DNA of 64,000 nucleotides from Escherichia phage S143_2, in sequence record MZ189261.1; one strand, 5' to 3'. Under the pieces are notes generated by a model, which was not told where the DNA came from, searched no databases, and worked only from the letters and a program-made list of their open reading frames with translations. This document shows, one piece after another, positions 203-63,264 of the stretch; the stretch's first letter is position 1, and the number at the start of each line of letters is the position of its first letter. The translations under genes were made by a program, and so were the position numbers.

Positions 203-266
203 TTTTTGTTTCCTTGTTTGTTTTGATAGAGTAATTATACCATATTAATACTTAAGCGTAAACTGT

Positions 267-527: not shown

Positions 528-533
528 TTTTCC

Positions 534-947: not shown

Positions 948-1005
948 AAGTTCCTCCAAGTAGTTGATGAATGTATAGTATCAAAGTCCTTGGAGGAAGT
1001 AAACA

Positions 1006-1772: not shown

Positions 1773-1773
1773 A

Positions 1774-1799
1774 ATACCTCCCACGTTTATAGGAGGTAT
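1774..1799 (-). promoter_or_regulatory. inverted repeat pairing the e Shine-Dalgarno (ATACCTCC / GGAGGTAT), loop contains TATAAACG
   Basis: Perfect 8-bp inverted repeat directly upstream of e ATG; mirrors the known T4 e early-transcript translational block. Confidence 0.6.
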
Positions 1800-1806
1800 T
1801 TATTAC

Positions 1807-3439: not shown

Positions 3440-3440
3440 A

Positions 3441-3746
3441 TTATTTTCCTCGACATTCTTTAATGAAATTTTCTAGATTGGTAGATTCAATAGCTTTTTT
3501 ACGAGCTTCTGCGTGTTCTTCTTCAGACAATTTACATTTATAATTGACCCAGACATTATGGTCGAAACTAGTCGTGGCATATAATAACAATGCTCCAACG
3601 AATAGCAAAAACGGTGATAAGAATACGAAACCAGGAACACCATCCATATCGTAGGCCTTTTGTAATACTGCAACAGAAAGAGCTGCGTAAAAAGGTGATG
3701 CAAATATTGTTAAAAGACCGATTCGGTTGGTTTCTGTTAATTTCAT
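3441..3746 (-). CDS. small membrane protein (101 aa)
   Basis: Two hydrophobic helices; C-terminus ...LENFIKECRGK; SD GAGGAGAA; downstream of early-promoter cassette. Confidence 0.6.
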   Translation of the reverse strand: MKLTETNRIGLLTIFASPFYAALSVAVLQKAYDMDGVPGFVFLSPFLLFVGALLLYATTSFDHNVWVNYKCKLSEEEHAEARKKAIESTNLENFIKECRGK

Positions 3747-3764
3747 AATATTCTCCTCATGTTT

Positions 3765-3806
3765 TAATAGGACTACTATATCATAGTCCTATAATTGTGT
3801 AAACAG
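3765..3806 (-). promoter_or_regulatory. early-promoter-like cassette with embedded stem-loop (copy 1)
   Basis: Minus strand GTTTAC (-35) then inverted repeat ATAGGACTA/TAGTCCTAT over the -10 region; near-identical copies at 5059-5101 and 12714-12756. Confidence 0.6.
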
Positions 3807-3816
3807 TTTTGTGAAG

Positions 3817-4773
3817 TTATTTGAAAGGTTTTACCATATGGAAATTTTGTTTGAAACGTTTGACGTAATCATCATGTCCTAAGCTTTGGTACATACTTAC
3901 TACTTTGCTGTAGTTTTCCCAGGCATACTCACGGAACCAACCAGAGGTGATGCTTGTACAGACTTTTTCCAATGCCATCATAAAACTGGCTTCAGGGTTA
4001 ATTTTAAAGTCATTAGGAATTTGAGAACGTTCTAATGCTAGTACACATGATTCTTCGTATACACCGGCCAATTTGACCATTTCTGGTAACGATTCAAACT
4101 TCTCGCGTGAGGTCATGACTTCAGAACCGTCTTTCATATAAAATGTATACGCTGGACGGTCTGTTAGTGCAATGGCTTCATGAATAGTATCATGGTCATA
4201 CGTATAGATGTCATCTTTAAAGAACGCACTTTTAGAAGTGTCAAGAACTGGGTGAGCATAGTTCAAGGTTTCTTTCTGGCGTTTCAGCATAATTTCAGTA
4301 AGTTCATCGTTCAGTGTAACACCTTTACCACGAAGATACTGAATATGGTTCATAGTCTTTAAAAAGAATGGATTATTTTTCTTGAAACGATGAGACAACT
4401 TAATTGCAAGACATATCTCAGGAGTTGCCCAGTAAAACCCGTTCAAACGGTCTTTAGTCAAATTTTTCTTGGCGTATTTTAAAAGGTCATAAGAAGACGT
4501 GAAATCTTCAGGAGTGAGTTCACCTACTAATTCACGGACATTAGTGATTGCCGGAACAATATATGCTTCAAAATGAGTTTCGCGTCCATTATGGAAGCAT
4601 TTGAAAACTTGGACATCAGGGTTATCTTGATGAACATATACACCCATCATTTGATTTTTGAATGCATTCCAAGAACCTTGGTCTGCAATAAAGTCCCAGT
4701 CACTATTTTTGATAGCGTTAGAATCAATAAGACCATGATAGTGAAGTGCACGAGAACCAATAACTAACATCAT
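3817..4773 (-). CDS. hypothetical protein (318 aa), possible nucleotidyltransferase-fold N-terminus
   Basis: Strong SD GAGGAAAA; N-terminal LVIGSRA...SDWDFIA loosely fits the G[GS]...DxD NTase pattern; no family recognised. Confidence 0.6.
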   Translation of the reverse strand: MMLVIGSRALHYHGLIDSNAIKNSDWDFIADQGSWNAFKNQMMGVYVHQDNPDVQVFKCFHNGRETHFEAYIVPAITNVRELVGELTPEDFTSSYDLLKYAKKNLTKDRLNGFYWATPEICLAIKLSHRFKKNNPFFLKTMNHIQYLRGKGVTLNDELTEIMLKRQKETLNYAHPVLDTSKSAFFKDDIYTYDHDTIHEAIALTDRPAYTFYMKDGSEVMTSREKFESLPEMVKLAGVYEESCVLALERSQIPNDFKINPEASFMMALEKVCTSITSGWFREYAWENYSKVVSMYQSLGHDDYVKRFKQNFHMVKPFK

Positions 4774-4801
4774 AATATTTTCCTCGGATTAATTCATTAA
4801 C

Positions 4802-5053
4802 TTAAATTTCACGACATGCGATATCATATTCATCCCAGAGGTCATCGTGTGAAGCCTCTACCAATGGAACGATTGTACCATTTATGTCTTCATTATAAGG
4901 GCAAATTGTACAGTGCGCATCTTCGAATCGGATACCTTTGTGTTCAGATTTTTTATAACGCATATCGAATATCTTTGCAAATTTTTCACGAGTAATGGTT
5001 TTACCAACCACTTTGGTTCCGATACTTTCGTAATAAATCATTGTGGACTCCAT
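4802..5053 (-). CDS. hypothetical protein (79-83 aa)
   Basis: ORF downstream of early-promoter cassette; alternative start at 5041. Confidence 0.5.
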   Translation of the reverse strand: MESTMIYYESIGTKVVGKTITREKFAKIFDMRYKKSEHKGIRFEDAHCTICPYNEDINGTIVPLVEASHDDLWDEYDIACREI

Positions 5054-5058
5054 TTAAT

Positions 5059-5101
5059 TTGATAGGACTACTATAACATAGCCCTATCTTGTTGTAAACT
5101 G
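5059..5101 (-). promoter_or_regulatory. early-promoter-like cassette with stem-loop (copy 2)
   Basis: gataggactactataacatagccctat...gtaaac, about 85-90% identical to copies at 3765 and 12714. Confidence 0.6.
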
Positions 5102-5103
5102 TT

Positions 5104-5301
5104 TTAGCAAGAATAACTAGACGATACCCAGCCTTGAACAGTGATACTATTGTGGGATAATGAGATCGCGTCCTGGAGATTCAGACCTGCGTTATCTTCA
5201 ATCCATAACGTAACTTCTTCGCGTTCTTCTGTTGCAATTTGGAACAGGTTTTCCAGAGCAGCTACTGCCGTACGTACAGCACAATCTAATTCACGAGACA
5301 T
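5104..5301 (-). CDS. small protein, paralog family member (65 aa)
   Basis: C-terminus ...QGWVSSSYSC shared with the next two ORFs. Confidence 0.5.
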   Translation of the reverse strand: MSRELDCAVRTAVAALENLFQIATEEREEVTLWIEDNAGLNLQDAISLSHNSITVQGWVSSSYSC

Positions 5302-5310
5302 ATGGTTTCC

Positions 5311-5583
5311 TTAGCAAGTGTGAGAAGATGCGATCCAACCACCAGTTTCGAGGCTTAGGTTGTAGTCGTATTGGTAAACGTCGGCCCATTCAGCATAGCC
5401 GTTTTTTGTACAACGTTCAAGGTCGGCTTTAAGCTGTCCGGGTGAATGATATGTTCCACCCATACCATAAGCTGGATACAAGTCGAATGTTGTGTTTTGT
5501 TTATCAGCAATTTCTTTGGCAGCCTCAATAGCTGCATAGATTTTTGCTACAGCTTCAGCCAATTCGGTTTGTTCTTTAGACAT
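5311..5583 (-). CDS. small protein, paralog family member (90 aa)
   Basis: C-terminus ...GGWIASSHTC; stop overlaps TAAGGAA SD of next gene. Confidence 0.55.
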   Translation of the reverse strand: MSKEQTELAEAVAKIYAAIEAAKEIADKQNTTFDLYPAYGMGGTYHSPGQLKADLERCTKNGYAEWADVYQYDYNLSLETGGWIASSHTC

Positions 5584-5592
5584 AGTGATTCC

Positions 5593-5898
5593 TTAGCACA
5601 ACGCAGAAGACGAAACCCAAGCACCTTCAGTAATAACGTAACCGTTACCTTCACGCTTAACATCGCCACCATTATTTTCAATTTCATCTTTCATCCACTG
5701 GGATACGATTTCACCCTTAGGATAATAAGTACGACCGCTACCATAATCACCTACAGAAAATGATACGGCATATTGGTCTGCGATCTTTGTTGCTTCTTCT
5801 TCGATACGTTCAGCTTGATTCAGAAGTTTATAAATTGCGTCTGAAGCGGATTTGGCATCATTAAACTCTGGTACTTTAATTTCAATAATCTTACTCAT
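5593..5898 (-). CDS. small protein, paralog family member (101 aa)
   Basis: C-terminus ...GAWVSSSALC; ATGA overlap with upstream gene. Confidence 0.55.
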   Translation of the reverse strand: MSKIIEIKVPEFNDAKSASDAIYKLLNQAERIEEEATKIADQYAVSFSVGDYGSGRTYYPKGEIVSQWMKDEIENNGGDVKREGNGYVITEGAWVSSSALC

Positions 5899-6254
5899 TT
5901 TCTACATTCCTTAATAAAGTTTTCGATTGTTTCATTTTCACGTCTAGCTAGGAGTTCATTATAACTAATCATTTGAGAAGCGTAAACCTTTTTATTTTTC
6001 TTGTTATGGTTTATAAAGTCGTAGTAAAAATAGACTACAGTACAAAAGGATGCGATGGATGCAAAGGCTTGGGTATACCGTAAGTCCTGCCATTGGTCTG
6101 TGAATCCACCAGTGTTCCCTATAAATCCTAACACAACGCCGTCAATAAGAAATCCAACTAATCCAAAGGCAAATCCCATGCCAATACTCATAATAAAAAT
6201 TAGAATGTTCTCACCAAGAGAAGGCCATACGGTTAAGAGTTGAGGCTTTTGCAT
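5895..6254 (-). CDS. small polytopic membrane protein (119 aa)
   Basis: Multiple hydrophobic helices; C-terminus ...IENFIKECRK. Confidence 0.6.
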   Translation of the reverse strand: MQKPQLLTVWPSLGENILIFIMSIGMGFAFGLVGFLIDGVVLGFIGNTGGFTDQWQDLRYTQAFASIASFCTVVYFYYDFINHNKKNKKVYASQMISYNELLARRENETIENFIKECRK

Positions 6255-6628
6255 CTTATTTCCTTAACGAATTCCATAGCTTCTTCATATTCATACTTTT
6301 TAACAGCTTCATCATACTGAGCTTGGGCTTTTGCGCACTGAACTTTCCATTCTCTTAATCGGGCTCTGTGATGACGGCCTTGGTGCCAATATCCTGCCCA
6401 ATTAATAGGCATTAATAAAAACGGTACAATAAGTGGTGCGACGAACATTAATGAAAACGCTGCATCAGACGATATAACTTTATTGGAATCTAAAACAGCT
6501 CCTATAATCATAAAGATTAAAAACGCTAAAGCTAAAATAGGGCCAAATAGTACTTCATTTGGGATTAATTTACGCTTGTATTCATACGCCCAGGGCTTAC
6601 TTGGCATGTATAGGGTTGGCTTTGACAT
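6233..6628 (-). CDS. small membrane protein (about 131 aa)
   Basis: Start trimmed to ATG 6628 (track start was TTG); TM segments LFGPILALAFLIFMIIGAVL and AFSLMFVAPLIVPFLL; C-terminal EFVKEIRCK. Confidence 0.55.
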   Translation of the reverse strand: MSKPTLYMPSKPWAYEYKRKLIPNEVLFGPILALAFLIFMIIGAVLDSNKVISSDAAFSLMFVAPLIVPFLLMPINWAGYWHQGRHHRARLREWKVQCAKAQAQYDEAVKKYEYEEAMEFVKEIRCKSLNS

Positions 6629-7193
6629 ATTCTCTACATTCCATAATAAATTGCTCAAGGATTAAATTGTTAGTGAAATTAGGACTAACAACCATGGTTT
6701 CATAAAGCGCATCAATAGCACTTAAAGCATCAACTCTTTTAAGCAAAGGCTTGCCTTCATACATAGTTTCAGAATCGACGATTAAAGTGAAGTAGTATTT
6801 TTTATTATTGACCAGAACTTCTGTATCAATATAAAACATGTTAGACCTTAAAAGCTTGTCTCTAAAGCCTATGTAATCATCTGAACGTTCACTGATATAG
6901 TCCCATTCAGTGTTTAAACAACAAACAGACCACGTAGGAGCAACGAAATCAGTGAATCTAATATCATGGTCTGCAACTAGTTTAGCAATAGCTCCGATAT
7001 CATGAATCATAATACCTGGGGCTAATAAAGATTTTCGGTTATTTGCATATTCAGTTGTCTCATAAGAAGACGACCAGTACCATTTACGTCCAGTTGCAAC
7101 ATATCGTAATGAATCAACTAAAGACGTAGGTGGATTTACCTTATCTCGGAACTCTTCGAACATTGAGTCAATATCATTATTTTGGTTTCGCAT
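6597..7193 (-). CDS. hypothetical protein (about 198 aa)
   Basis: Start trimmed to ATG 7193 with AAGGAG SD; contains EQFIMECR near C-terminus. Confidence 0.55.
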   Translation of the reverse strand: MRNQNNDIDSMFEEFRDKVNPPTSLVDSLRYVATGRKWYWSSSYETTEYANNRKSLLAPGIMIHDIGAIAKLVADHDIRFTDFVAPTWSVCCLNTEWDYISERSDDYIGFRDKLLRSNMFYIDTEVLVNNKKYYFTLIVDSETMYEGKPLLKRVDALSAIDALYETMVVSPNFTNNLILEQFIMECREYVKANPIHAK

Positions 7194-7210
7194 GTTAACT
7201 CCTTTATTAT

Positions 7211-7238
7211 CCAAAAGGAGGACCGGAGTCCTCCGTAT
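7211..7238 (-). terminator. intrinsic terminator-like hairpin (GGAGGAC..GTCCTCC + T-run on minus strand)
   Basis: Perfect 7-bp stem followed by TTTTGG on the minus strand. Confidence 0.5.
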
Positions 7239-7242
7239 TATT

Positions 7243-7836
7243 TTATTTCAAAGAGTTAATATATTCTTGTACATCAGCAGAAGTGGTTTCGACACCAGCT
7301 GGAGTACCATTGAACGTTTCAACACGAGTCAGAGTGTCTTCGATATCAACCTTAGTCAGTGCAGCGATTTCAATTACATCATCAGCCGTAGAGATACCAA
7401 GGGCATTAGCTGCTCGAGTTTCACGAATGTATTCGAGTTTGATTGCCAGATTCTGACGAGCATCGTCAAGTTCAACAACCTTACGAGCAATTTCAATTCG
7501 CATAGCGGCATACCCGTCAGCTTTTGTATTAAGTTGTTCGGCAGTTCGACGATACAGAAGACCAAGCTTGGCATGCATGGTAACATCTTGTCCTTCAGCC
7601 AGGAGCTTACGAATTTCACGTTCCTTAGAAGCGGCTTGCTTATTCTTTTCAATAACAAGTTCGCGAATACGTTTTTCTTCATTAATAGATTTAACAGAAG
7701 CCGTTTTTAGTTCTTTGATTTGGGTAATCAACTTATCTGCAGCTGCGTTATACTGTTCTTCGACAGTCAGATTTTTAGCCATAGCAGTACCCAGTTTAGT
7801 GCGGATGAATTCAACAAGTTTCTTCAGTGTGTTCAT
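7243..7836 (-). CDS. coiled-coil protein (about 197 aa), unknown function
   Basis: Start trimmed to ATG 7836 with AAGGTAA SD; heptad-rich helical sequence; own early promoter upstream. Confidence 0.55.
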
Positions 7837-7865
7837 ATTATTACCTTTCAATTGGTGGTTTATTA

Positions 7866-7900
7866 TCCAACGAGAGCATTATACTCTGCTCTCAAGAGTT
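7866..7900 (-). promoter_or_regulatory. early-promoter-like element with inverted repeat GAGAGCA/TGCTCTC
   Basis: Minus strand ATTTAC -35-like box followed by a stem-loop over the -10 region. Confidence 0.4.
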
Positions 7901-7906
7901 TGTAAA

Positions 7907-8134
7907 TTATTTTTTAATCAAATTGACATAAAACTCGGCGTCTTCCGGGTGCATGCCTTCGCAGTATTCTTCAACCATGAACTTCTTAACAGCTTCATAA
8001 GGACCACTCAGATTAAGCTCAGTTGTCCAGAACTTGGAATCTTGGACTGAATCGATACGAACTTCAGGGTGTCGGTTGCGAATAACTTCTTCGGTGTATT
8101 CATAATCAACGACATCAATACTAACTTTAGCCAT
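7907..8134 (-). CDS. hypothetical protein (75 aa)
   Basis: ORF with upstream promoter-like element. Confidence 0.45.
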   Translation of the reverse strand: MAKVSIDVVDYEYTEEVIRNRHPEVRIDSVQDSKFWTTELNLSGPYEAVKKFMVEEYCEGMHPEDAEFYVNLIKK

Positions 8135-8180
8135 TTTATTTTCCTCTTGATTTGATGTGATTACTATAACATAAACTTAC

Positions 8181-8345
8181 TTAGATGTAAATTATTTCAA
8201 CGTCACCTTTAGCTGCTTTATAACCTTCAGCCCAAGATACAACAGAGTTTTTATCCGAGGATTCAAATTCAGGCATTGGACTTTCACCAATATTCACACA
8301 GTATGTTTCTTCATTTTCGTCAAACCAAATAATTAAAGTAGTCAT
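8181..8345 (-). CDS. hypothetical small protein (54 aa)
   Basis: Hand-translated MTTLIIWFDENEETYCVNIGESP...; preceded by GGAG SD inside a cassette duplicated at 45783. Confidence 0.4.
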   Translation of the reverse strand: MTTLIIWFDENEETYCVNIGESPMPEFESSDKNSVVSWAEGYKAAKGDVEIIYI

Positions 8346-8386
8346 TTTGTTTACTCCACTGTAGTTGATAAGTCTATAGTATCACC
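8341..8386 (-). promoter_or_regulatory. promoter/RBS/start-codon cassette (copy A)
   Basis: 44 of 46 nt identical to 45783-45830, including the ATG and first codons. Confidence 0.6.
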
Positions 8387-8412
8387 ATCCTTGGTGCTTG
8401 TACATCATTATT

Positions 8413-8718
8413 TTATTTTTTCCAACTTAACAACTTGTAGTGTCCTTCATTCATACGTGGTTTATCCCAAGAAATACTAATATACGATTCACTGTCAATA
8501 GAAGTCGCCGGGTTTTTCTCTACCGTAAGACCTTCACTTTCCAGCCATTCAATAGTATTTGCGCATAAATCTGAAGAACACCTCATCGGAAACCGGCAAG
8601 ATTTTTCACCTTTAGCTGCAGTGTTATACATCTTTTCTAAAATACGCTTTTGCACGTTTTTAAAAATAGTTTCAGCAGATTCTTCAGATTTTTTATTCAG
8701 TTCGGTATAAAGACTCAT
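8413..8718 (-). CDS. hypothetical protein (101 aa)
   Basis: ORF with SD GAGGAAAA. Confidence 0.5.
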   Translation of the reverse strand: MSLYTELNKKSEESAETIFKNVQKRILEKMYNTAAKGEKSCRFPMRCSSDLCANTIEWLESEGLTVEKNPATSIDSESYISISWDKPRMNEGHYKLLSWKK

Positions 8719-8827
8719 AACATTTTCCTCATGTTTTTATAGGTCTATAGTAACACATCTAGGGAAGAAGTAAACAACTTTTTCAGTAAGTTATAGACCC
8801 CCTAATGGGGACCGAAGTCCCCATTCT

Positions 8828-9454
8828 TTACTTACGAGTTTTTGCATACTGAGCAGCGTCAGCAGCCAAACGACCTGCCTGACGAAGTTTTTCTTTAATC
8901 GCATCGTGAAGTGGTTGAGTATACTTCAAACCTTCGATAGTCAAATAAAGACGATAAAGGTCTGGGGTGTCAAGGTTGTTGATATGTTGGCCATTACGAA
9001 GAATATTGAATTCACGAACGAGTGAAGATGTATCAGATTCAATATCACGAACAAGCGAAGATAGTTGTTTATATTTTTTTTCCAGGCTAGAAGTATCAAA
9101 CTTAAGAGCAGGAGCTTTAGGAGTTGCTTTTACTTCCGGCTTAGGCTCAGGTTTTGCTACTGCTTTAGGGGTCGCAGGTTTAGGAGTGGTAGGAGCAGGT
9201 TTCACTTTAGGCGAACCCGATTTAGCAGAAACACCACCACTAACAATATCTTTGAATGCTTTAGAAGCTCTGTAATATTCTTTTTGGCTGGAAGTGTCGA
9301 TACCGTACATGGCTTGAACGTTTTTGAAAAACTCTGTACTAGTTTTTGTACCAGAAATAGCATCGTAAGCAGCTTGCCATTTCTCTTTTGTCATACGTAC
9401 ACCGGCTTCGGTGATTACTTCCGTTTCGGCTAAAAATTCATTAAAAGTATACAT
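8828..9454 (-). CDS. internal-protein-like capsid-targeted protein (208 aa), Pro/Lys-rich central region
   Basis: N-terminus MYTFNEFLAETE resembles the IP targeting sequence; late promoter TATAAATA 36 nt upstream. Confidence 0.5.
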   Translation of the reverse strand: MYTFNEFLAETEVITEAGVRMTKEKWQAAYDAISGTKTSTEFFKNVQAMYGIDTSSQKEYYRASKAFKDIVSGGVSAKSGSPKVKPAPTTPKPATPKAVAKPEPKPEVKATPKAPALKFDTSSLEKKYKQLSSLVRDIESDTSSLVREFNILRNGQHINNLDTPDLYRLYLTIEGLKYTQPLHDAIKEKLRQAGRLAADAAQYAKTRK

Positions 9455-9489
9455 TGATGGTCCTTAGAAAGTAGGTTTATTGTTTACTA

Positions 9490-9497
9490 TATTTATA
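9490..9497 (-). promoter_or_regulatory. T4-type late promoter TATAAATA
   Basis: Exact TATAAATA on minus strand upstream of the 8828..9454 start. Confidence 0.6.
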
Positions 9498-9498
9498 C

Positions 9499-9529
9499 AA
9501 AAAAGCCCCAACCTTTCGGAAGGGGCTAT
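9499..9529 (-). terminator. rho-independent terminator
   Basis: Minus strand AGCCCCTTCCGAAAGGTTGGGGCT followed by TTTTTTG. Confidence 0.7.
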
Positions 9530-9829
9530 ATACCTTGTCGGGGTTCCACCTACTAAGGCAAGTGTTTGTACGAAACGCCGGGGTTCGAACCCGGTTATTA
9601 AGCAGTTGACGCTACTCAATATTTTTAAAAGGCCATATCTCGACCATATCCGAACGTTCCGTCAAAAACGCTACTCGGCTTACGGCAAAGATATTTCCTC
9701 GAATCGATAATTCGGTGCGCCGTTTCTGCTGTGGTGTAAGGGGATATTAACAAATCGTAAAGATTTATTAAGACCAGTCCTTACTCAGGGAACATCAGTC
9801 CGACGACTTACCGGTAGCGACCCGGCTTC

Positions 9830-10174
9830 TTATTTTGGCATATCATCAATTTGCTCTCGACGCCGACGCCATAGATTAATCGCTTCATTAACACATTCGG
9901 CGTTTGGTATATGACGGCAATAATATAATGATTCGCGTTTCTGGAACCGATGTTGCAATGGGATTTCGTTTAAAAGGTCTTTACGGTCAAAGTATTCAAA
10001 ACTAGTTAACCCGGAACGGTTTTTAATGAACTTCCAATGACCGAATTCATTTTGAACATAGATGTAATCTGCGTGTTGGTATAACAAATTAATCAATCGG
10101 TCTGAAATAACTGTATCATGTTCGTTAAAATAAAACGTTAAATCATGAACTACTAAGTAAACATTACCTTTCAT
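9830..10174 (-). CDS. hypothetical protein (114 aa)
   Basis: Start trimmed to ATG 10174 with GAGGAAAA SD; the longer track ORF would overlap tRNA-Arg. Confidence 0.55.
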   Translation of the reverse strand: MKGNVYLVVHDLTFYFNEHDTVISDRLINLLYQHADYIYVQNEFGHWKFIKNRSGLTSFEYFDRKDLLNEIPLQHRFQKRESLYYCRHIPNAECVNEAINLWRRRREQIDDMPK

Positions 10175-10192
10175 ATTTTCCTCACTTAAAGT

Positions 10193-10269
<77 letters not shown>

Positions 10270-10273
10270 TATT

Positions 10274-10348
10274 TGGCGGACGTGATAGGATTCGAACCTA
10301 TAACCAATCGCTTAACAGGCGATCGCTCTGCCATTGAGCTACACATCC
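10274..10348 (-). tRNA. tRNA-Asn (anticodon GUU), CCA encoded
   Basis: Acceptor GGATGTG/CACGTCC, anticodon stem ATCGC/GCGAT, loop CTGTTAA, T-arm ATAGG TTCGAAT CCTAT. Confidence 0.8.
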
Positions 10349-10352
10349 AAAT

Positions 10353-10439
10353 TGGTGGGGAGTGATGGAGTCGAACCACCCGAGTCGCAATGACAATGGA
10401 TTTACAGTCCACACCGCTACCTCTACGGGATAACTCCCC
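10353..10439 (-). tRNA. tRNA-Tyr (anticodon GUA), long variable arm, CCA encoded
   Basis: Acceptor GGGGAGT/ACTCCCC, anticodon loop CTGTAAA, T-loop TTCGACT. Confidence 0.75.
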
Positions 10440-10451
10440 TAATTCATAATT

Positions 10452-10526
10452 TGGTGGCCCTGGGTGGAATTGAACCACCATCTGGCGATTATGAGTCGCT
10501 TGCTTGAACCTTCCAGCTACAGGGCC
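10452..10526 (-). tRNA. tRNA with anticodon CAU (Ile lysidine-type by T4 synteny, or Met)
   Basis: Acceptor GGCCCTG/CAGGGCC, anticodon loop CTCATAA, T-arm GGTGG TTCAATT CCACC. Confidence 0.75.
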
Positions 10527-10527
10527 T

Positions 10528-10603
10528 TGGTGCTGATTGACGGAATCGAACCGCCGACCTTCTCATTACAAGTGAGTTGCTCTACCTACTGAGCTAAATC
10601 AGC
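10528..10603 (-). tRNA. tRNA-Thr (anticodon UGU), CCA encoded
   Basis: Acceptor GCTGATT/AATCAGC, D-arm GCTC AGTAGGTA GAGC, anticodon loop CTTGTAA. Confidence 0.8.
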
Positions 10604-10608
10604 AAAAC

Positions 10609-10698
10609 TGGCGGAGGCGATAGGATTTGAACCTATGAGTCGCCGGAGCGACTGCCGGTTTTCAAGACCGGTGCATTAAACCACTCTGCCACGCCTCC
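10609..10698 (-). tRNA. tRNA-Ser (anticodon UGA), long variable arm, CCA encoded
   Basis: Acceptor GGAGGCG/CGCCTCC, anticodon stem CCGGT/ACCGG, loop CTTGAAA. Confidence 0.8.
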
Positions 10699-10700
10699 AG

Positions 10701-10774
10701 TCTCCATACAAGGATTTGAACCTTGGGCCTCCTGATCCCAAATCAGGCGCTCTACCAAACTGAGCTACACGGAG
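10701..10774 (-). tRNA. tRNA-Pro (anticodon UGG), no encoded CCA
   Basis: Acceptor CTCCGTG/TATGGAG, anticodon stem CCTGA/TCAGG, loop TTTGGGA; 2-nt spacer to tRNA-Ser. Confidence 0.8.
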
Positions 10775-10784
10775 TAAATTAAAT

Positions 10785-10858
<74 letters not shown>

Positions 10859-10863
10859 AAATT

Positions 10864-10950
10864 TGGTGCGAGAAGTGGGACTCGAACCCACAAGGAAATC
10901 ATTCCGCAGCATTTTAAGTGCTGTGCCTTTACCAATTTGGCCATTCTCGC
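10864..10950 (-). tRNA. tRNA-Leu (anticodon UAA), long variable arm, CCA encoded
   Basis: Acceptor GCGAGAA/TTCTCGC, anticodon loop CTTAAAA, T-arm GTGGG TTCGAGT CCCAC. Confidence 0.8.
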
Positions 10951-10951
10951 G

Positions 10952-11024
10952 CTGGGAATAAAGGACTCGAACCTTTGCATCCTGGAATCAAAATCCAGTG
11001 CCTTACCAACTTGGCTAATTCCCA
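10952..11024 (-). tRNA. tRNA-Gln (anticodon UUG), no encoded CCA
   Basis: Acceptor TGGGAAT/ATTCCCA (U1:A72), anticodon stem CTGGA/TCCAG, loop TTTTGAT; 1-nt spacer to tRNA-Leu. Confidence 0.8.
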
Positions 11025-11121
11025 ATTATTAACAAAGGCTCTCTAACAAGAACCCTTGATGATAGAGGGTATTAATCAGTGCGATATGAGTTAATAATAA
11101 CAAATAATTCTTAAAGCATAT

Positions 11122-11415
11122 TTACCATTTATGATAATACATATTTACGATGCAGTCAAGACCCAAAGGATTCTTGAAAATATCATATTCAAGAGGACCT
11201 TTTTCCGTTTCAATAAAGAAATCAAAATTTACTGTATTAAATTTACGGTCTTCCTTCACTAATTTAACTTGAGAAGATGAACGGTCAATGTAAACCTTTT
11301 CAACTTCAAAACATGTTAAAATGCCATAATCATCAATCAAGGCTTTAGCCGCGTCTTGATCATATTTATATCCATTTTCAATAGACGATACTTTAGCATA
11401 AAGAATCATTATCAA
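11122..11415 (-). CDS. hypothetical protein (97 aa)
   Basis: ORF; stop overlaps next gene start. Confidence 0.45.
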   Translation of the reverse strand: MIMILYAKVSSIENGYKYDQDAAKALIDDYGILTCFEVEKVYIDRSSSQVKLVKEDRKFNTVNFDFFIETEKGPLEYDIFKNPLGLDCIVNMYYHKW

Positions 11416-11792
11416 CCTTCATCAACAATAGTATGAGTATGAGCATTTACAATTTGCCACCAATCAAAGCGATTAGAACCATACATCAGGTTGTTCTCAT
11501 TTTCTTTGATAATGTCACGGAGTTCATCTTCAGTAGCGGCTTTCGCTATTAAATCAGCATATCCACCGCGAGGATAATAATTATCACCTGCAAAAAGTAA
11601 AAAGTTCGGTTTAATATTATTGAACTCTTCAAGAGTAATAACTTTTCCTGTCGGTTGAACAATCTCTACATATTTATATCCTAATTTTTGAGCAGCATCT
11701 ACTGCTTCAAGCAAAGTATCATGAGCCCATCCAATTTGACAACCTGGCTTTTCAGATGGATTAGCCTGATAATCCGCGTACACTTTATACAT
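11412..11792 (-). CDS. hypothetical protein (about 126 aa)
   Basis: Start trimmed to ATG 11792 with AAGGTG SD. Confidence 0.5.
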   Translation of the reverse strand: MYKVYADYQANPSEKPGCQIGWAHDTLLEAVDAAQKLGYKYVEIVQPTGKVITLEEFNNIKPNFLLFAGDNYYPRGGYADLIAKAATEDELRDIIKENENNLMYGSNRFDWWQIVNAHTHTIVDEG

Positions 11793-11793
11793 T

Positions 11794-11979
11794 CTATTCA
11801 CCTTTTGCAATTTTATCCATAACGATAGCGATTAAGCCGATTAGAAATGCTACTACCAATGAGATAGAATTTTCGGTTGTTGTCAGTAGTCCACAAATGA
11901 ATCCTACAAACATCGAAAAACTAAAAGCCATTGAAGCAATTACTACAGCAACATTACGAATCAGTTCAGCGCGTTTCAT
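11794..11979 (-). CDS. small hydrophobic membrane protein (61 aa)
   Basis: Two hydrophobic segments; early-promoter-like element with inverted repeat GATAGGGTA/TACCCTATC upstream at 11998-12040. Confidence 0.45.
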   Translation of the reverse strand: MKRAELIRNVAVVIASMAFSFSMFVGFICGLLTTTENSISLVVAFLIGLIAIVMDKIAKGE

Positions 11980-12048
11980 TTTATTCTCCTCGGTAGTTGA
12001 TAGGGTAATAGTATCACTACCCTATCTAAAAGTAAACGGTTTTATAAA

Positions 12049-12357
12049 CTATTTTATTCCGCGTGATGCAATCGTATTCTGCCGTTTAACGCCAGTTTGT
12101 TTAAAGTTATGATTGTCAAGTTGATCGGTACGAGCAACTCCGAATGATGATTTAATCTTAGCTTTAGATCCTTTAGTTATAGAAATAAACATCTCGGGAG
12201 CCCCTTTCTTAAAGTCCGAAGCAATTACTTCAACACCGTTCTTAGCAAGTGACCTCAGAATTGCTTCCGCGTACTCATCATCAAGACCCGCTTGAGTATG
12301 AATAACGAATGTCTTTGGTGCAGCCGCTTCATTGATAAATTCTTTATAGGTTTTCAT
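12049..12357 (-). CDS. internal-protein-like capsid-targeted protein (102 aa)
   Basis: N-terminus MKTYKEFINEA. Confidence 0.6.
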   Translation of the reverse strand: MKTYKEFINEAAAPKTFVIHTQAGLDDEYAEAILRSLAKNGVEVIASDFKKGAPEMFISITKGSKAKIKSSFGVARTDQLDNHNFKQTGVKRQNTIASRGIK

Positions 12358-12417
12358 TTTATTTTCCTAATTAATTTTGATGAGATAATAATACCACAAC
12401 CCTATTTAAAAGTAAAC

Positions 12418-12690
12418 TCATTTTAAATAAATTGCGTATTTTTTATAACCCGCCGACTCATGACGAAGACCCTTATCATTAGCAAAACGCTCAATGTTGT
12501 TAATTTGATTCTGGTCAAGTTCAGAGATGTCAAACACGAAAAAGTTACGTTTGTTACCAACTGTTACATAGTCAGTTAAATCAATATCATATAGGTAATT
12601 GATGTCAGCAATCAAAGTCTTGACAGCTTTGCTAATTTTTACTTTTTCGTTAAAAGTAGCTTCATTGATAAATTCTTTATAGGTTTTCAT
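12418..12690 (-). CDS. internal-protein-like capsid-targeted protein (90 aa)
   Basis: N-terminus MKTYKEFINEA; in the position of T4 ipI next to 57B. Confidence 0.6.
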   Translation of the reverse strand: MKTYKEFINEATFNEKVKISKAVKTLIADINYLYDIDLTDYVTVGNKRNFFVFDISELDQNQINNIERFANDKGLRHESAGYKKYAIYLK

Positions 12691-12713
12691 TTTATTTACT
12701 TGAGGTCGTTTAT

Positions 12714-12756
12714 TTGATAGGACTACTATAACATAGTCCTACAGGTGTGTAAACTG
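12714..12756 (-). promoter_or_regulatory. early-promoter-like cassette with stem-loop (copy 3)
   Basis: gataggactactataacatagtcctac...gtaaac; minus strand GTTTAC -35 then TAGGACTA/TAGTCCTA stem-loop. Confidence 0.6.
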
Positions 12757-12767
12757 TTTTGTAAAAA

Positions 12768-13453
<686 letters not shown>

Positions 13454-13457
13454 TTTA

Positions 13458-14192: not shown

Positions 14193-14245
14193 AGGTTTTC
14201 CTCATATAATTTATGAGTGATTATAACATACGGAGCTAGAAGCGA

Positions 14246-14830: not shown

Positions 14831-14932
14831 AAGCACCTCAAAAACGCTTTAATAAAAATGCAGTATAATGGTTTTAGGTCTCTTCCATTAATCCGGTTCA
14901 ACAGAATACCAGAAGAACGGAAGAGAATAGAA

Positions 14933-60829: not shown

Positions 60830-61118
60830 TACGGAATGAAAGGAATGCTGGTGCTCGGAATGGAGTATCATCTTTAGAGTATTTAACTAATACGACCATT
60901 GGTACCTCTGTTTCTAAATGACCCGTCACTACACCGACAAAAATTTGATCAGTGTGTTCAGGGTCACGAAAGTTTTTAAGAGGTTCCATAGCAATATGGA
61001 ATGCACCTGGGAATACTCGATTCAATTCGTCAATCACAGCTTCGTTAAAAGCATCATCCGCTGGGATAACATCTTCAACTACTAGTTCTTGACCATTAAA
61101 GCGAAGCATAGATTTCAT
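60825..61118 (-). CDS. hypothetical protein (about 97 aa), alt-downstream ORF
   Basis: Start trimmed to ATG 61118 with GAGGAAAA SD; early promoter at 61147-61177. Confidence 0.5.
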   Translation of the reverse strand: MKSMLRFNGQELVVEDVIPADDAFNEAVIDELNRVFPGAFHIAMEPLKNFRDPEHTDQIFVGVVTGHLETEVPMVVLVKYSKDDTPFRAPAFLSFRK

Positions 61119-61176
61119 AACGTTTTCCTCATGTTGTTGATGGGATGATAGTATCACACATCCATGTGTTTGTAAA

Positions 61177-63264
61177 CTATCCTTGGACAAATTTAAACGG
61201 AACTGATTCTAAATCCATTAAAGATGCTAACAATTTCAATCCTTTAGGAGCACTAGTTTTTTCTACAAATGAGGAGAACGATATCGGCTCATCTGATTCG
61301 ATTTCACCCGTCATAGCAACCACCTCACCTGTTTCCATGAGAACATCACCGTCGTAAATGACAGCTTCGTCCAACTGGTCTGAGGACATGACTTCAGCTT
61401 GAATAAATTTAAGGTTGGATTCTAAACCTGCACCAGTGTCAGATGACGCATCTGTAATTTTATTTATCTGCAAGAGAATGCCTCTAGGCAAAATAATTTC
61501 TTGCTCATTAGGGTGATTACTCAACTGTCCAGGATAAATCACGTTAACTTTATGGGCGCCATCAATAGCCCATCCAACGTTAACACGGATTTGGTCTGGT
61601 GCATGCATAGCTGTTCTTACTTGACTAGGAGAAATAGTAACACCTTCGTCATTATTGTCAATGTTAAGCTCTTTGCGAACTTCTTCAGGAGCAAGTCCAA
61701 GGGCAACGTTCTCTTTAAACCCACCAAAAATAATAGGAGCTAGTGAAGTAGAAACATAGTTTCTGAAGTAGAATACCTTATTTTTAACCATTGCTTCGTA
61801 AATAGGCATTCTGATAGACTGGGCTCTATATAACGTTAGTCCTTCAGGTAAACGGTCTCCATTTAAAAACGCTGAATCAAGACCATCAATAGCGCGTTTA
61901 ACTTCATCTTCATCTGCAACATCGTAAAAATCTGGTTTATAACGACCTAACAACATATTATTGATATCCGTATACGCAGAAGAGGCATATTCACGAATAG
62001 CTCGTTTTTCAGCAACAGAGTATTGATTAGGGACCCGATTCATTGTTATATTAAAGGTGCCTCTAGCCGATTCTCGTGCATAAGTATACATCACATTAGA
62101 CAAGAACGCTGATTTACGTTGTTTCCAAGTTCTTTCAGATACTTCAGCTAAAACGTCGTCGGGCAGTTGGAAATTATCACGTCTAAAATCTTCAAACCAT
62201 TCGTCTTTAATAGAGTCTGCAATTTCATTTGCAGCTTCGACAAAAGCAGCTAATGCTTTAACAGATGTTGTTTTTTCAGTTTTAATTTTCTTAGCAAACT
62301 TTTCTAAAGTTGGCTTAATAACACTACCATAAGAAACTTCATCAGCAAATCTAAAGGATTCATCAATACGATTATAAATCTTATTTTCGATATCAGCAAC
62401 TAAAGTGCCTTTTGCTGTGGACGATGCTTGGGCTAGTACGATTTCATATGCTTCAGGAAGTAATTCGGCTGTAGCTGGGCCACTAACTTCTTTAGCAGAA
62501 TTTTCGTATTTCTGGAATAACTCACCTTCTTGGCGGTCAGCTTCTAAAGATTGACTTGCTGCAATAGCACGACGAGAAATTTTAGTACGAGCAATAACAG
62601 GCTTATCTTTACGTTTTTCTTCTACCGCAGCAATAGAACCAGCGATAGCCGTTTCTTTGGTGACCATTTCGCCAGTCTTTTTACTCACATAAACTTCGCC
62701 AACATCAGAATCTACTTTCGTGTACAACTCTGTGTTAATGTTAGGGATGCCTTTAATATCTTCAATGTTGGCATTTTTACGAACCATCATCACATAGGTG
62801 TGTTTACCTGTGAATTGATACATTGCCGACAATACTTTAAAACGACCACCGGTTTTAGTAGAAACTAAACGAGCAAGAAGAGTTTGAAGCTGCTGTCCGC
62901 GTCCTTTCAATTTCTTGGTAGGGAATCGGAATAGAACTGCATCCATACGAAGAGCTTTAACCTGTTCATATACTGTATTGAAAATGGTGTTGATTGCATC
63001 AATAGGAGCAGGACCAAGGCCATTTTTCAATTCAGCGAGATTGCCCTTTTCAGATAGACTCATAATAACAACATGAGCGTATTTGTCGCCAAGTTTAACT
63101 TGTTTTACAGCATCACCTTCGGAAAGGTAAGAGAATAAGCGAACTACGATGTTTGTATCGATATCACCAATTTTCCAGACTTGTGGAACTTTAGCTTTAG
63201 GGTTCAAATTGACGACAGGAAGACTGCCTTCAGATTCAAACACTTCATTTAATTGTTCAGACAT
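61177..63264 (-). CDS. alt: Alt ADP-ribosyltransferase (packaged, injected)
   Basis: 695 aa (T4 Alt 682 aa); position between gene 54 and gene 30. Confidence 0.85.
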   Translation of the reverse strand: MSEQLNEVFESEGSLPVVNLNPKAKVPQVWKIGDIDTNIVVRLFSYLSEGDAVKQVKLGDKYAHVVIMSLSEKGNLAELKNGLGPAPIDAINTIFNTVYEQVKALRMDAVLFRFPTKKLKGRGQQLQTLLARLVSTKTGGRFKVLSAMYQFTGKHTYVMMVRKNANIEDIKGIPNINTELYTKVDSDVGEVYVSKKTGEMVTKETAIAGSIAAVEEKRKDKPVIARTKISRRAIAASQSLEADRQEGELFQKYENSAKEVSGPATAELLPEAYEIVLAQASSTAKGTLVADIENKIYNRIDESFRFADEVSYGSVIKPTLEKFAKKIKTEKTTSVKALAAFVEAANEIADSIKDEWFEDFRRDNFQLPDDVLAEVSERTWKQRKSAFLSNVMYTYARESARGTFNITMNRVPNQYSVAEKRAIREYASSAYTDINNMLLGRYKPDFYDVADEDEVKRAIDGLDSAFLNGDRLPEGLTLYRAQSIRMPIYEAMVKNKVFYFRNYVSTSLAPIIFGGFKENVALGLAPEEVRKELNIDNNDEGVTISPSQVRTAMHAPDQIRVNVGWAIDGAHKVNVIYPGQLSNHPNEQEIILPRGILLQINKITDASSDTGAGLESNLKFIQAEVMSSDQLDEAVIYDGDVLMETGEVVAMTGEIESDEPISFSSFVEKTSAPKGLKLLASLMDLESVPFKFVQG

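Follow-up and report, generated by a model that had tools for sequence, protein, structure and literature searches.

Three T4-Type Early Promoters with an Inverted Repeat

Three similar elements on the minus strand of Escherichia phage S143_2 (copies A, B, and C, with -35 hexamers at 3804, 5099, and 12754 of the 64,000-nucleotide stretch of record MZ189261.1 analyzed here, called the window throughout) are, judging from their sequence, T4-type early promoters for the host sigma-70 RNA polymerase, with predicted start sites. They are also very probably cassettes of the promoter-early stem-loop (PeSL) type, in which an inverted repeat would act as an RNA hairpin in read-through transcripts and the modules would serve as portable homology. 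The assignment to this type follows from the complementarity of two stretches that the promoter leaves free: -24 to -16 (spacer) and -7 to +2 (discriminator/start region).

All three copies read GTTTAC-N18-TATAGT, i.e., TTTACA-N17-TATAGT in the sigma-70 register, with TG at -15/-14, and an inverted repeat of 8–10 bp (ATAGGACTA/TAGTCCTAT) brackets this TGn-extended -10. A search for the pattern GTTTAC-N7-TAGGACTATGNTATAGTAGTCCTAT, allowing up to three mismatches, returned exactly three sites (3804-3767, 5099-5062, and 12754-12717) and none in 100 dinucleotide-preserving shuffles; an independent repeat search recovered the arms at the positions listed in Table 1 (copy A, 9 nt, 100%; copy B, 10 nt, 90%; copy C, 8 nt, 100%). 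The three elements thus exist where the original prediction had placed them, with the minus-strand GTTTAC and the repeat around the -10 that it had described; its figure of 85-90% identity was too high, as pairwise values are 81-86% over the 42-nt core and 72-74% over 65 nt.

The copies lie 4-13 nt past the stop codon of the upstream gene, in the correct orientation, and directly downstream (~20-35 nt) come the Shine-Dalgarno and ATG of an ORF on the early strand, which bears out their proposed location just upstream of accessory genes. An A-rich tract, CAAAAC(T/A) or TAAAACA, stands 5' of the -35, and the start A is preceded by CCT; a sigma-70 scan of the gene strand ranked the three copies among its best matches, with TG upstream of the -10. 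Their consensus agrees with the early promoters of T4 and RB69 (Liebig and Ruger 1989; Nolan et al. 2006, PMC1524935), which share the GTTTAC -35, the A-rich -40s (the UP-like tract at about -40 to -44 in the RB69 logo), a GT-rich stretch or TGn before the -10, the preference for C at -3 to -1, and a location upstream of early genes or novel ORFs. No genome-wide map of start sites in T4 or RB69 turned up in a search of the literature. Each copy would drive a small accessory or internal-head-protein gene from a predicted start at the A of (T)ATCAA/ATTAA; the three downstream ORFs each belong to a known phage protein family.

The window belongs to a Mosigvirus, i.e., an RB69-like, T4-type phage, and is ~97% identical to phage ST0, where the same sequence subfamily has at least seven near-identical copies in the 120 kb examined. 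The region of the three copies is hyperplastic and corresponds to T4 e-tRNA-ipI-57B-1, copies A and B lying in the e-segB region and copy C at the internal-protein locus; neighboring ORFs are mostly without known function. About 11 early promoters of the same general design are found in window positions 1-13000 versus 2 candidates in the 50-kb late-gene block, and those further to the three copies and the diverged relatives, which the original prediction had overlooked, have their -35 at 12417, 8775, 8405, 8192, 1004, 263, and 45847. Significant matches of Rfam 15 covariance models to window positions 1-14500 were tRNAs only.

Three more diverged relatives had been proposed, and they fared differently. 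The one at 12037-11996 is a genuine relative with a compensated hairpin; the one at 7907-7872 is an early promoter, but its hairpin is unrelated; the third, at 61177-61143, looks like an early promoter but has a 5-bp repeat only, and its predicted fold is no better than those of shuffled sequences. An anti-Shine-Dalgarno stretch occurs in the spacer of some promoters of these phages, with an example in the window at 1004, where the hairpin hides the Shine-Dalgarno, unlike in the three copies.

Table 1. Positions of promoter modules, repeat arms, and associated genes in the window.
Feature	Position	Strand	Remarks
Copy A, whole module	3744..3819	-	Upstream ORF stop 3817-3819, A-rich tract, promoter, hairpin, SD GAGGAG
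Copy A, downstream ORF	3441-3746	-	ATG 3746-3744; phrog_9798, function unknown
Copy A, -35 GTTTAC	3799..3804	-	
Copy A, left arm ATAGGACTA	3784..3792	-	Within promoter spacer
Copy A, extended -10 TGa TATAGT	3775..3783	-	Forms the hairpin loop
Copy A, right arm TAGTCCTAT	3767..3775	-	-7 to +2; predicted start A at 3768
Copy B, whole module	5039..5106	-	Upstream stop 5104-5106; -35 5099-5094; SD GGAG
Copy B, left arm GATAGGGCTA	5088-5079	-	One G.T wobble
Copy B, -10 TATAGT	5075-5070	-	Predicted start ~5063
Copy B, right arm TAGTCCTATC	5070-5061	-	
Copy B, downstream ORF	4802-5041	-	Likely ATG 5041, end 4802; 79 aa, phrog_3723
Copy C, whole module	12688..12770	-	57B/Acb1-like gene stop 12768-12770; -35 12754-12749
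Copy C, left arm TAGGACTA	12741-12734	-	
Copy C, -10 TATAGT	12730-12725	-	Predicted start ~12718
Copy C, right arm TAGTCCTA	12725-12718	-	
Copy C, downstream gene	12418-12690	-	ATG 12690; internal head protein
Diverged relative	11977..12037	-	-35 12037-12032; -10 TACTAT 12013-12008; HMM E=0.009
Diverged relative, arms GATAGGGTA/TACCCTATC	12026-12018 / 12007-11999	-	Compensated relative to copies A-C
Gene of the 12037 promoter	ATG 11979	-	trna.4-like ORF, phrog_1692
Early promoter, unrelated hairpin	7849..7907	-	-35 ATTTAC 7907-7902; -10 TATAAT 7883-7878; ATG 7851
7907 promoter, arms GAGAGCA/TGCTCTC	7893-7887 / 7878-7872	-	
Early promoter	12357..12429	-	-35 12417-12412; predicted to drive second internal head protein gene, 12049-12357
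12417 promoter, 9-bp inverted repeat TATTTAAAA/TTTTAAATA	12421-12429 / 12403-12411	-	Brackets -35, not -10
Early-promoter-like site GTTTAC-N18-TACTAT	61118..61177	-	Repeat GGATG/CATCC
Two early promoters	8134..8405	-	No -10-bracketing hairpin
Early promoter, -35 ATGTAC	8405-8400	-	In-spacer repeat CACCA/TGGTG
Early promoter, -35 ATTTAC	8192-8187	-	HMM E=4e-5 to the three copies

Cassette Junctions within Promoter Modules

Promoter modules coincide with the junctions of cassette indels and replacements, and one copy results from a short-patch swap of its core. When the window was compared with seven close relatives, junctions fell inside promoter modules at 3798-3804, 7898-7912, 8156, 8781, 11989, 12364, and 12418, in line with the gene shuffling originally proposed for these elements. 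At copy A, the 7-nt junction overlap (3798-3804) lies on the -35, and five of the seven relatives have an extra ORF cassette of ~262 bp; the junction at 7898-7912 is likewise at a -35, phage JN02 having an extra 291-bp ORF cassette between two promoters. Position 8156 is the predicted start of the 8192 promoter, 11989 is a replacement junction in the module of the 12037 promoter, and 12364 and 12418 lie in the 12417 module. Replacement junctions at the internal-protein locus fall partly in the promoter, partly in the MKTYKEFI leader.

Copy C is the positional orthologue of the promoter upstream of T4 ipI. Its core of ~27 bp (~12748-12721), both arms included, has been swapped into an otherwise orthologous promoter: the patch is seen only in this phage, with flanks orthologous to those of the seven relatives and T4, and no record in the phage collection matched window positions 12640-12830 full-length at 95% identity or more. 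Hairpin-less promoters (8192, 8775, and 12417) are junctions as often as hairpin promoters, and the junction data thus give no sign that the stem-loop itself promotes recombination; viable indels are in any case confined to the gaps between genes, and intergenic DNA here is mostly promoter.

Pairing Conserved Despite Arm Turnover

Pairing across these promoters is far above chance and persists through turnover of the arm sequences, with G.T mismatches tolerated on the sense strand and A.C mismatches not. The RNA folds of the three copies reach -12.7, -16.0, and -13.0 kcal/mol, with z-scores of -3.1 to -5.3. At least six Watson-Crick pairs bracket the -10 in 16 of the 45 candidate early promoters of ST0 (5.9 expected when promoter halves are swapped, p<5e-5). 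About one third of this group's early promoters have the hairpin repeat, with arms that differ and covary (ACTA/TAGT, GCTA/TAGC, GTA/TAC, AAG/CTT, TTCA/TGAA, GAGAGCA/TGCTCTC, and GGATGAT/ATCATCC, among others); in a wider sample of 327 promoter clusters from 146 T4-like loci, stems of at least 7 bp number 47 versus 8.3 expected, and those of at least 9 bp 21 versus 0.9, an excess of about 20-fold. The position of the stem varies: it may bracket the -10 or the -35, or lie inside the spacer or upstream of the promoter. Since two thirds of early promoters are without a clear hairpin, the latter appears dispensable for promoter function.

In an alignment of 55 TATAGT-type promoters selected blind to their arms, 56.4% of cells are paired versus 50.3% in shuffles, and the covariation score is 0.252 versus 0.188 (neither value reached in any of 500 shuffles), slid registers giving 0.13-0.17. 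At one orthologous site, the 57B-IP junction, T4, a set of seven Mosigviruses, and the window have three different hairpins, all of them paired. Copying of whole hairpin cores between promoters, and not stepwise compensatory change, may account for some of the apparent covariation.

Sense-strand stem mismatches are G.T in 16 cases versus A.C in 2 at a score threshold of 5.5, and 12 versus 2 at 6.5; with a compositional null fraction of 0.43-0.53, this gives p ~0.002-0.02, for a sample of 14-18 independent mismatches. Among relatives, copies A and B show A<->G polymorphism opposite T (A-U <-> G.U). The G.T excess could owe something to a strand-asymmetric mutation bias, e.g., C->T on the non-template strand. 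The mismatch asymmetry favors an RNA hairpin in read-through transcripts over a DNA operator or cruciform.

One could see in the repeat a feature with no function of its own, which T4-type replication would create by strand switching or quasi-palindrome-templated mutation and which gene conversion of whole cores would spread from promoter to promoter. T4 is the classic system for the quasi-palindrome-templated mutations associated with Ripley; the arms of copy C did move as a unit into the 57B-IP promoter, near-identical cores recur in ST0, and most promoters manage without a hairpin. Such neutral copying would not be expected to produce a sense-strand excess of G.T over A.C, and it has to accommodate at least 10 unrelated arm sequences with pairing kept in all, a left arm placed differently in the T4 trna.4 promoter and in the window's 12037 promoter with pairing retained, and the excess of long stems. 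We consider it unlikely.

Less probable still is a reading of the stem-loops as ordinary intrinsic terminators, which would serve the upstream genes and overlap the next promoter by chance. The hairpin does begin ~20-25 nt past the upstream stop codon, the PeSL papers give stem-loops a terminator or attenuator role, and one G/C-rich RB49 stem cut lacZ expression as strongly as rrnB T1 (PMC2839356). However, all three stems are followed not by a T-run but by CAAA/TAAAA (TAAAAC or CAAAT), so that they are not canonical terminators; being AT-rich, with only 3-4 G-C pairs, they may fall outside the role described for G/C-rich stems. None of the 15 terminator-like sites found by a scan (e.g., 7217-7234 and 8804-8825) is at the three elements.

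A role at the DNA level, whereby a cruciform or hairpin extruded at the -10 would make the promoter sensitive to supercoiling or attract structure-specific cleavage (endonuclease VII, gp46/47) that starts recombination, seems very improbable. The repeat is centered on the -10 in the three copies, where extrusion would wreck the -35/-10 geometry; genes for endonuclease VII and an SbcCD-like nuclease are present in the phage, and junctions map to the modules. Hairpin-less promoters, however, are junctions just as often, the arms measure a mere 8-10 bp, and the stem is not fixed in register or position relative to the promoter. Nor is a mismatch asymmetry expected of a cruciform, whose opposite strand has an A.C wherever the sense strand has a G.T. 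It is hardly credible that the palindrome is an operator at which a dimeric DNA-binding protein, from phage or host, would switch this promoter subfamily off: a perfect 9-bp palindrome over the -10 at three window promoters and at least seven in ST0 would suit it, but there is no conserved half-site, palindromes of wholly different sequence occupy the same place in other promoters, orthologous sites change arm sequence with pairing kept, asymmetric arms of the G.T type are tolerated, and T4 early promoters have no known candidate regulator (review PMC2988021).

Discussion

PeSLs, as defined by Arbiol et al. 2010 (PMC2839356) and Comeau et al. 2014 (PMC4122927), are composites: to an A/T-rich tract and a sigma-70-type early promoter they add a stem-loop, placed over the -10 or between it and the -35, as well as a Shine-Dalgarno with its start codon. 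They occur in many copies, concentrated in hyperplastic regions, at the points where close relatives differ by insertion, deletion, or replacement, and recombination of adjacent copies is expected to excise mini-circles. The resemblance originally suggested is upheld for every feature that can be examined in silico, i.e., promoter, stem-loop over the -10 (one of the commonest PeSL geometries, PMC2839356), Shine-Dalgarno/ATG, hyperplastic clustering, and junctions. The phages in which PeSLs were described are RB49/phi1, T4/PST, and nt-1/KVP40, not an RB69-like Mosigvirus; RB49/phi1 PeSLs have G-run/C-run stems and a TTGACA -35, and T4/PST stems are mostly just upstream of the promoter, whereas the stems of the window are AT-rich, mostly bracket the -10, and lack a T-run.

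According to the account of Repoila et al. 1994 given in PMC2839356, AT-rich stem-loops are also found on T4 early promoters at the internal-protein loci of T-even phages, as repeats flanking shuffled internal-protein genes with a common conserved leader; this is exactly the locus of copy C, as well as of the 12417 and 12037 promoters. As copies A and B are in the e-segB region, the module is not confined to internal-protein loci in this phage. Early promoters of T4 and RB69 (57 predicted in RB69, Nolan et al. 2006, PMC1524935) have been described through position-by-position consensus logos, with paired positions unmentioned; the pairing between spacer and discriminator adds a layer to the published consensus.

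A promoter between or inside hairpin arms is also known from the T4 e, soc, 49, and I-TevI leaders (Uzan and Miller 2010, PMC3014915), and in both settings only transcripts from further upstream can fold the hairpin. In those leaders, the promoter is late and the hairpin hides the ribosome-binding site, whereas the window copies have an early promoter and a hairpin that extends no further than +2 and leaves the Shine-Dalgarno free.

We, thus, favor an RNA hairpin that would mark the cistron boundary. As the local start sits at the 3' end of the stem, only transcripts reading through from upstream promoters would form this hairpin. Its effect may be to attenuate transcription or make it pause, or it may be a barrier protecting the 3' end of the upstream message or the 5' end of the downstream one, following cleavage by RegB or RNase E in the adjacent A-rich/GGAG leader. 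The hairpin would overlap the promoter because stop-to-ATG spacers are ~60-80 nt, leaving spacer and discriminator as presumably the only unconstrained positions. The repeated 40-60-bp modules would provide portable homology for T4-type recombination, whose outcome may be cassette gain, loss, or replacement, as well as core conversion. Such modules would be promoters that also mark the sites of gene-cassette swaps between related phages.

The Three Elements and Their Setting

Copies A, B, and C, the near-identical minus-strand elements with −35 hexamers at 3804, 5099, and 12754, are the sole matches in the 64 kb to a degenerate pattern joining the −35, both arms of the inverted repeat (its two halves, which bracket the −10), and the −10 itself; the same pattern has no match in 100 shuffles of the window, and a repeat search recovered the arms independently. 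The pattern search thus bears out the three copies of the original prediction, with an identity over the 42-nt core (81–86%) slightly lower than the 85–90% first given. Among the diverged relatives listed at the time, the one at 11998–12040 is retrieved by a three-copy profile (match at 12048–11996, E = 0.009), while that at 61147–61177 corresponds to a weaker match only (61180–61137); the profile also matches 8194–8143 (E = 4e-5) and, again more weakly, 268–218.

Window 3000–13500 shares 97% identity with Escherichia phage ST0 and 95–96% with many further genomes of Mosigvirus (RB69-like phages). Judged by how T4 and the relatives are annotated, window 1–14500 is a minus-strand early region; it is one hyperplastic region of T4-type genomes. 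Read in the sigma-70 register, copies A–C are TTTACA-N17-TATAGT with a TG at −15/−14, rank among the top sigma-70 matches on the gene strand, and carry the features of the T4/RB69 early-promoter logos (PMC1524935), namely GTTTAC, an A-rich tract before it, a GT/TGn stretch before the −10, and C-rich positions −3 to −1. They lie 4–13 nt past the stop codon of the preceding gene, and the Shine-Dalgarno and ATG of a small ORF follow about 20–35 nt downstream. By these features, copies A–C are T4-type early promoters, whose predicted transcription starts (3768, 5063, and 12718) are an A about 7 nt past the −10. Copy C is the positional ortholog of the T4 ipI promoter: the flanks align and the core alone differs. 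In RB69, 57 early promoters were predicted by Nolan et al. (PMC1524935); a genome-wide map of transcription starts was not found for either T4 or RB69 in our literature search, the annotation of the T4 RefSeq record holds no promoter features, and Rfam has no family at copies A–C.

Features of the early region and T4 counterparts (window positions unless stated; promoters are named by the position of their −35)
Feature	Position	Strand	Description
Early region, gene order	1–14500	minus	ipII/ipIII-like, denV, e, nudE, ~20 small ORFs, ten tRNAs, trna.2-4, internal protein genes, 57B (Acb1-like), 57A, gene 1
Copy A	−35 at 3804	minus	aaaactGTTTACacaattATAGGACTAtgaTATAGTAGTCCTATtaaaacatgaggag...ATG; downstream ORF phrog_9798
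Copy B	−35 at 5099	minus	aaaacaGTTTACaacaaGATAGGGCTAtgtTATAGTAGTCCTATCaaatt...ATG; downstream ORF phrog_3723
Copy C	−35 at 12754	minus	aaaacaGTTTACacacctgTAGGACTAtgtTATAGTAGTCCTAtcaaat...ATG; downstream ORF internal head protein phrog_7673
Internal head protein genes	12418–12690; 12049–12357		phrog_7673; phrog_2667
denV-type promoter	945–1004	minus	TTCCTCCAAG (998–989) pairs with CTTGGAGGAA (960–951); ATG at 947
Promoter 12417	12403–12429		9-bp repeat TATTTAAAA/TTTTAAATA around the −35
Promoter 8405	8382–8399		CACCA-agga-TGGTG within the spacer; recurs in ST0, JN02, and Mizar promoters
Stem at promoter 8775	8804–8825		G+C-rich AATGGGGAC-CGAA-GTCCCCATT, directly upstream of this early promoter
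T4 ipI promoter (orthologous)			arms TGATGAGGTA/TACCTCATCA
T4 ipII/ipIII region	T4 65799		13-bp repeat CCTAGAATTGTGA/TCACAATTCTAGG
T4 trna.4			ATAGGGT/ACCCTAT; left arm placed 6 nt upstream of its window position
T4 denV	record position ~65413		pairing TCTCCTGTAG/CTACAGGAGA, equivalent to the denV-type promoter
Junction	3798–3804		five relatives: extra ~262 bp cassette, 66-aa ORF between two early promoters
Junction	7898–7912		JN02: extra 291-bp ORF cassette between two promoters; overlap (A/G)T(G/T)TACAAAC
Replacement boundary	8156		predicted start of promoter 8192
Replacement boundary	8781		6 nt ahead of the 8775 −35
Replacement boundary	11989		leader of promoter 12037
Replacement boundaries	12364, 12418		promoter 12417
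Boundary	12659–12668		conserved internal-protein leader
Non-promoter junctions	2262–2268, 2619–2703, 5987–6238, tRNA array, 11409/11468–11738

Pairing and Covariation across the Promoter Family

A motif scan of three ST0 segments (120 kb), in which repeats were not considered, gave 45 candidate early promoters. At least 6 contiguous Watson–Crick pairs across the −10 center (upstream versus downstream half) are found in 16 of them, against 5.9 expected when halves are swapped among promoters and 3.2 after shuffling (p < 5e-5). Adding T4-like loci from IMG/VR brought the set to 483 unique promoters (327 clusters); stems of at least 7 bp occur in 47 of these clusters (8.3 expected) and stems of at least 9 bp in 21 (0.9 expected). 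The IMG/VR scan with GTTTAC-N15-TGN-TATAGT was too loose, as chance matches in unrelated viruses predominated among the matches listed; adding ATCAA to the pattern gave usable T4-like loci.

The outer pairs of the stem (ATAGG/CCTAT) are partly consensus; the inner pairs vary jointly (ACTA/TAGT, GCTA/TAGC, GTA/TAC, AAG/CTT, TTCA/TGAA), and entirely different stems are present as well, such as GAGAGCA/TGCTCTC, GGATGAT/ATCATCC, GGTACAGGT/ACCTGTACC, and GTGTAGGAG/CTCCTACAC. Orthologous promoters of T4 (ipI, the ipII/ipIII region, and trna.4) carry repeats of this kind too. In an ungapped alignment of 55 TATAGT-type promoters, selected regardless of their arms, 56.4% of cells are paired in the originally predicted register (50.3 ± 1.5% after shuffling) and the covariation score is 0.252 (0.188 after shuffling), values reached by 0 of 500 shuffles in either case; registers shifted by 1–3 columns give 32–47% paired cells and scores of 0.13–0.17. 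Stem position varies, and fixed-register covariation over all 252 clusters with an 18-nt spacer yields a weak signal, register 51 being the best. More informative were the per-promoter best stem with swapped halves and a test on those promoters that have a CCTAT discriminator, where column pairs 18-33 (p = 0.0002) and 20-31 (p = 0.0026) covary. The inverted repeat is a covarying feature across the promoter family; a clear stem is absent from two thirds of early promoters.

RNA or DNA Level

A hairpin in the sense-strand transcript predicts more G·T than A·C mismatches inside the stems; such an asymmetry is expected from neither a cruciform nor a protein operator. Penalizing all mismatches equally and keeping one promoter per cluster, we counted 16 internal G·T versus 2 A·C at a score of at least 5.5, 12 versus 2 at 6.5 or more, and 11 versus 2 at 7.5 or more; the G·T fraction in half-swapped chance stems is 0.43–0.53 (p about 0.002–0.02), and transversion mismatches are likewise depleted. 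In seven relatives, copies A and B show A and G alternating at one left-arm position opposite a T, that is, A-U exchanged for G·U. This suggests a strand-specific, RNA-like constraint on the stem; independent mismatches are few, and strand-biased mutation might contribute to the asymmetry. Cruciform and operator were set aside partly on the G·T asymmetry. As for a canonical terminator, the RNA stems predicted for copies A–C (−12.7, −16.0, and −13.0 kcal/mol; z −3.1 to −5.3) are followed by TAAAAC or CAAAT without a T-run, which led us to set it aside; our terminator scan does not place the copies among terminator-like sites, which it found elsewhere. Chance was also set aside.

Because the predicted start falls in the final two base pairs of the stem, only RNA begun at an upstream promoter could fold the hairpin. 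It may then mark a cistron boundary in read-through RNA, and could serve as an attenuator or pause, or as an exonuclease barrier following cleavage in the adjoining A-rich leader, where RegB-type GGAG(A) sites (consensus from PMC3014915) lie about 10 nt downstream. It would sit on the promoter because only about 60–80 nt separate stop codon and ATG, of which the spacer and discriminator alone are presumably left unfixed by RNA polymerase and ribosome.

Anti-Shine-Dalgarno Spacers and Other Stem Positions

In a separate subset of promoters, the spacer just past the −35 is an extended anti-Shine-Dalgarno, often (A)TTCTCC or TTCCTCC. In 13 of the 327 clusters it can pair with the ribosome-binding region downstream as a perfect stem of 10–13 bp, against 0.1 expected when spacers and leaders are permuted among promoters. 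For the denV-type promoter of the window, the read-through RNA is predicted to fold with the Shine-Dalgarno buried (−17.7 kcal/mol, z −4.2) and the RNA from the local promoter to be unstructured (−2.1 kcal/mol). Such a stem shares the logic of the T4 e, soc, 49, and I-TevI leaders; unlike in these, the promoter inside the hairpin is early. Mismatches in this class (3 G·T versus 4 A·C) are uninformative. As an independent case, the class shows, on predicted folds, that early-promoter spacers encode read-through RNA structure.

Stem positions in PeSLs, the promoter-early stem-loop cassettes known from T4-type phages, vary, “between −35 and −10” or “overlapping the −10” being commonest (PMC2839356), and the varied positions among the window promoters match this description by Arbiol et al.; the stem before promoter 8775 has the “stem-loop upstream of promoter” layout. 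Between two ORFs, at 7217–7234, we also observed a G+C-rich hairpin, GGAGGAC-CGGA-GTCCTCC, terminator-like on both strands; like the stem at 8804–8825, it is of another kind than those of copies A–C.

Recombination Junctions and Core Exchange

We aligned window 1–15000 to JK36, ST0, vB_EQ1, JQD51, LF82-1, JN02, and Mizar. Junctions with these genomes do occur at promoter modules (3798–3804, 7898–7912, 8156, 8781, 11989, 12364, and 12418). At the first, the window, vB_EQ1, and LF82-1 have a single promoter, and the 7-nt overlap of both alignments is the −35 hexamer plus an A. At half of these junctions, the promoter has no hairpin bracketing its −10, so the data support promoters as portable homology, not a special role of the stem. 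Since intergenic DNA here is mostly promoter, enrichment of junctions over a fair background is not quantifiable. Amplification junctions described by Srikant et al. (2022) have 2–10-bp microhomologies; PeSLs are not mentioned there.

The internal-protein cassette (11989–12668) varies between phages: ST0, JK36, JQD51, and JN02 have one internal head protein gene, of a different type, versus two in the window, and the cassette boundaries fall within two leaders, the conserved MKTYKEFI one and that of the next promoter. Other differences lie elsewhere. The window lacks, at 2262–2268, a small ORF of 219 bp that each of the seven relatives carries between nudE and the gene that follows it; this junction has a 7-nt overlap of the two alignments, and promoters play no part in it. 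Coding ORF 5895–6254 contains, on the minus strand at 5958–5987, a perfect match to the consensus GTTTAC-N18-TATAAT; in LF82-1, 11 bp replace window 5988–6237 (250 bp), and the aligned block stops at 5987. Ten tRNA genes (Arg, Asn, Tyr, Met, Thr, Ser, Pro, Gly, Leu, Gln) occupy 10193–11024, a region that differs in the relatives, with fewer annotated tRNAs (0–3 in four of them) and, in Mizar, a homing-endonuclease-like ORF among the tRNAs.

At the junction between 57B and the internal protein genes, 7/7 relatives read GTTTACataaGGATGATggtgtgtTACTATCATCCtatc and the window reads GTTTACacacctgTAGGACTAtgtTATAGTAGTCCTAtc (patch at 12721–12748), the sequence to either side being identical; a third core, likewise paired, is present in T4 at this position. 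Because this core is unique amid identical flanks, and window 12640–12830 (191 nt) has no full-length match of at least 95% among 50,697 phage genomes, we conclude that copy C arose by replacement of a core of about 27 bp by the TAGGACTA type, both arms and the −10 together; this type has at least 7 copies in the ST0 segments examined. Short-patch exchange of this kind accounts for the near-identity of three promoters fronting unrelated genes, and, as read from these alignments, part of the covariation is passed on with entire cores instead of arising one pair at a time.

Relation to Known Cassettes and Significance

By their sequence, copies A–C fit the PeSL concept (PMC2839356; PMC4122927), as well as the “analogous” AT-rich stem-loops on T4 early promoters at T-even internal-protein loci that PMC2839356 credits to Repoila et al. 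(1994), in so far as they are described there. The PeSL-type reading of the original prediction stands, with promoter plus stem-loop, junctions, and layout all consistent with it. Compared with the PeSL papers, Mosigvirus was not among the groups analyzed, its stems are AT-rich, most of them bracketing the −10, and copies also lie outside internal-protein loci; what is added here is a quantitative pairing test, the sense-strand G·T bias, and a core-swap example.

More speculatively, and with rather more doubt than confidence, the free positions of early promoters in T-even-type phages might be systematically recruited for RNA structure present only in read-through transcripts; −10 hairpins and, in other promoters, 10–13-nt anti-Shine-Dalgarno spacers paired with the ribosome-binding site would then form a general insulation layer, with each small early gene essentially driven by its own promoter and promoter-plus-structure cores exchanged by short-patch conversion.

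In T4-like phages, the modules set the manner and timing of expression of the many small accessory and anti-defense genes, including those for internal head proteins and those around Acb1, and they are seams for the gain, loss, and swapping of accessory genes. For annotation and phage engineering, they reliably mark early transcription units and safe insertion or deletion points, and the junction and core-swap cases are concrete substrates for studies of cassette exchange. The strand-specific, RNA-like constraint on the stem indicated here turns the rather loose PeSL concept into testable predictions on read-through transcripts.
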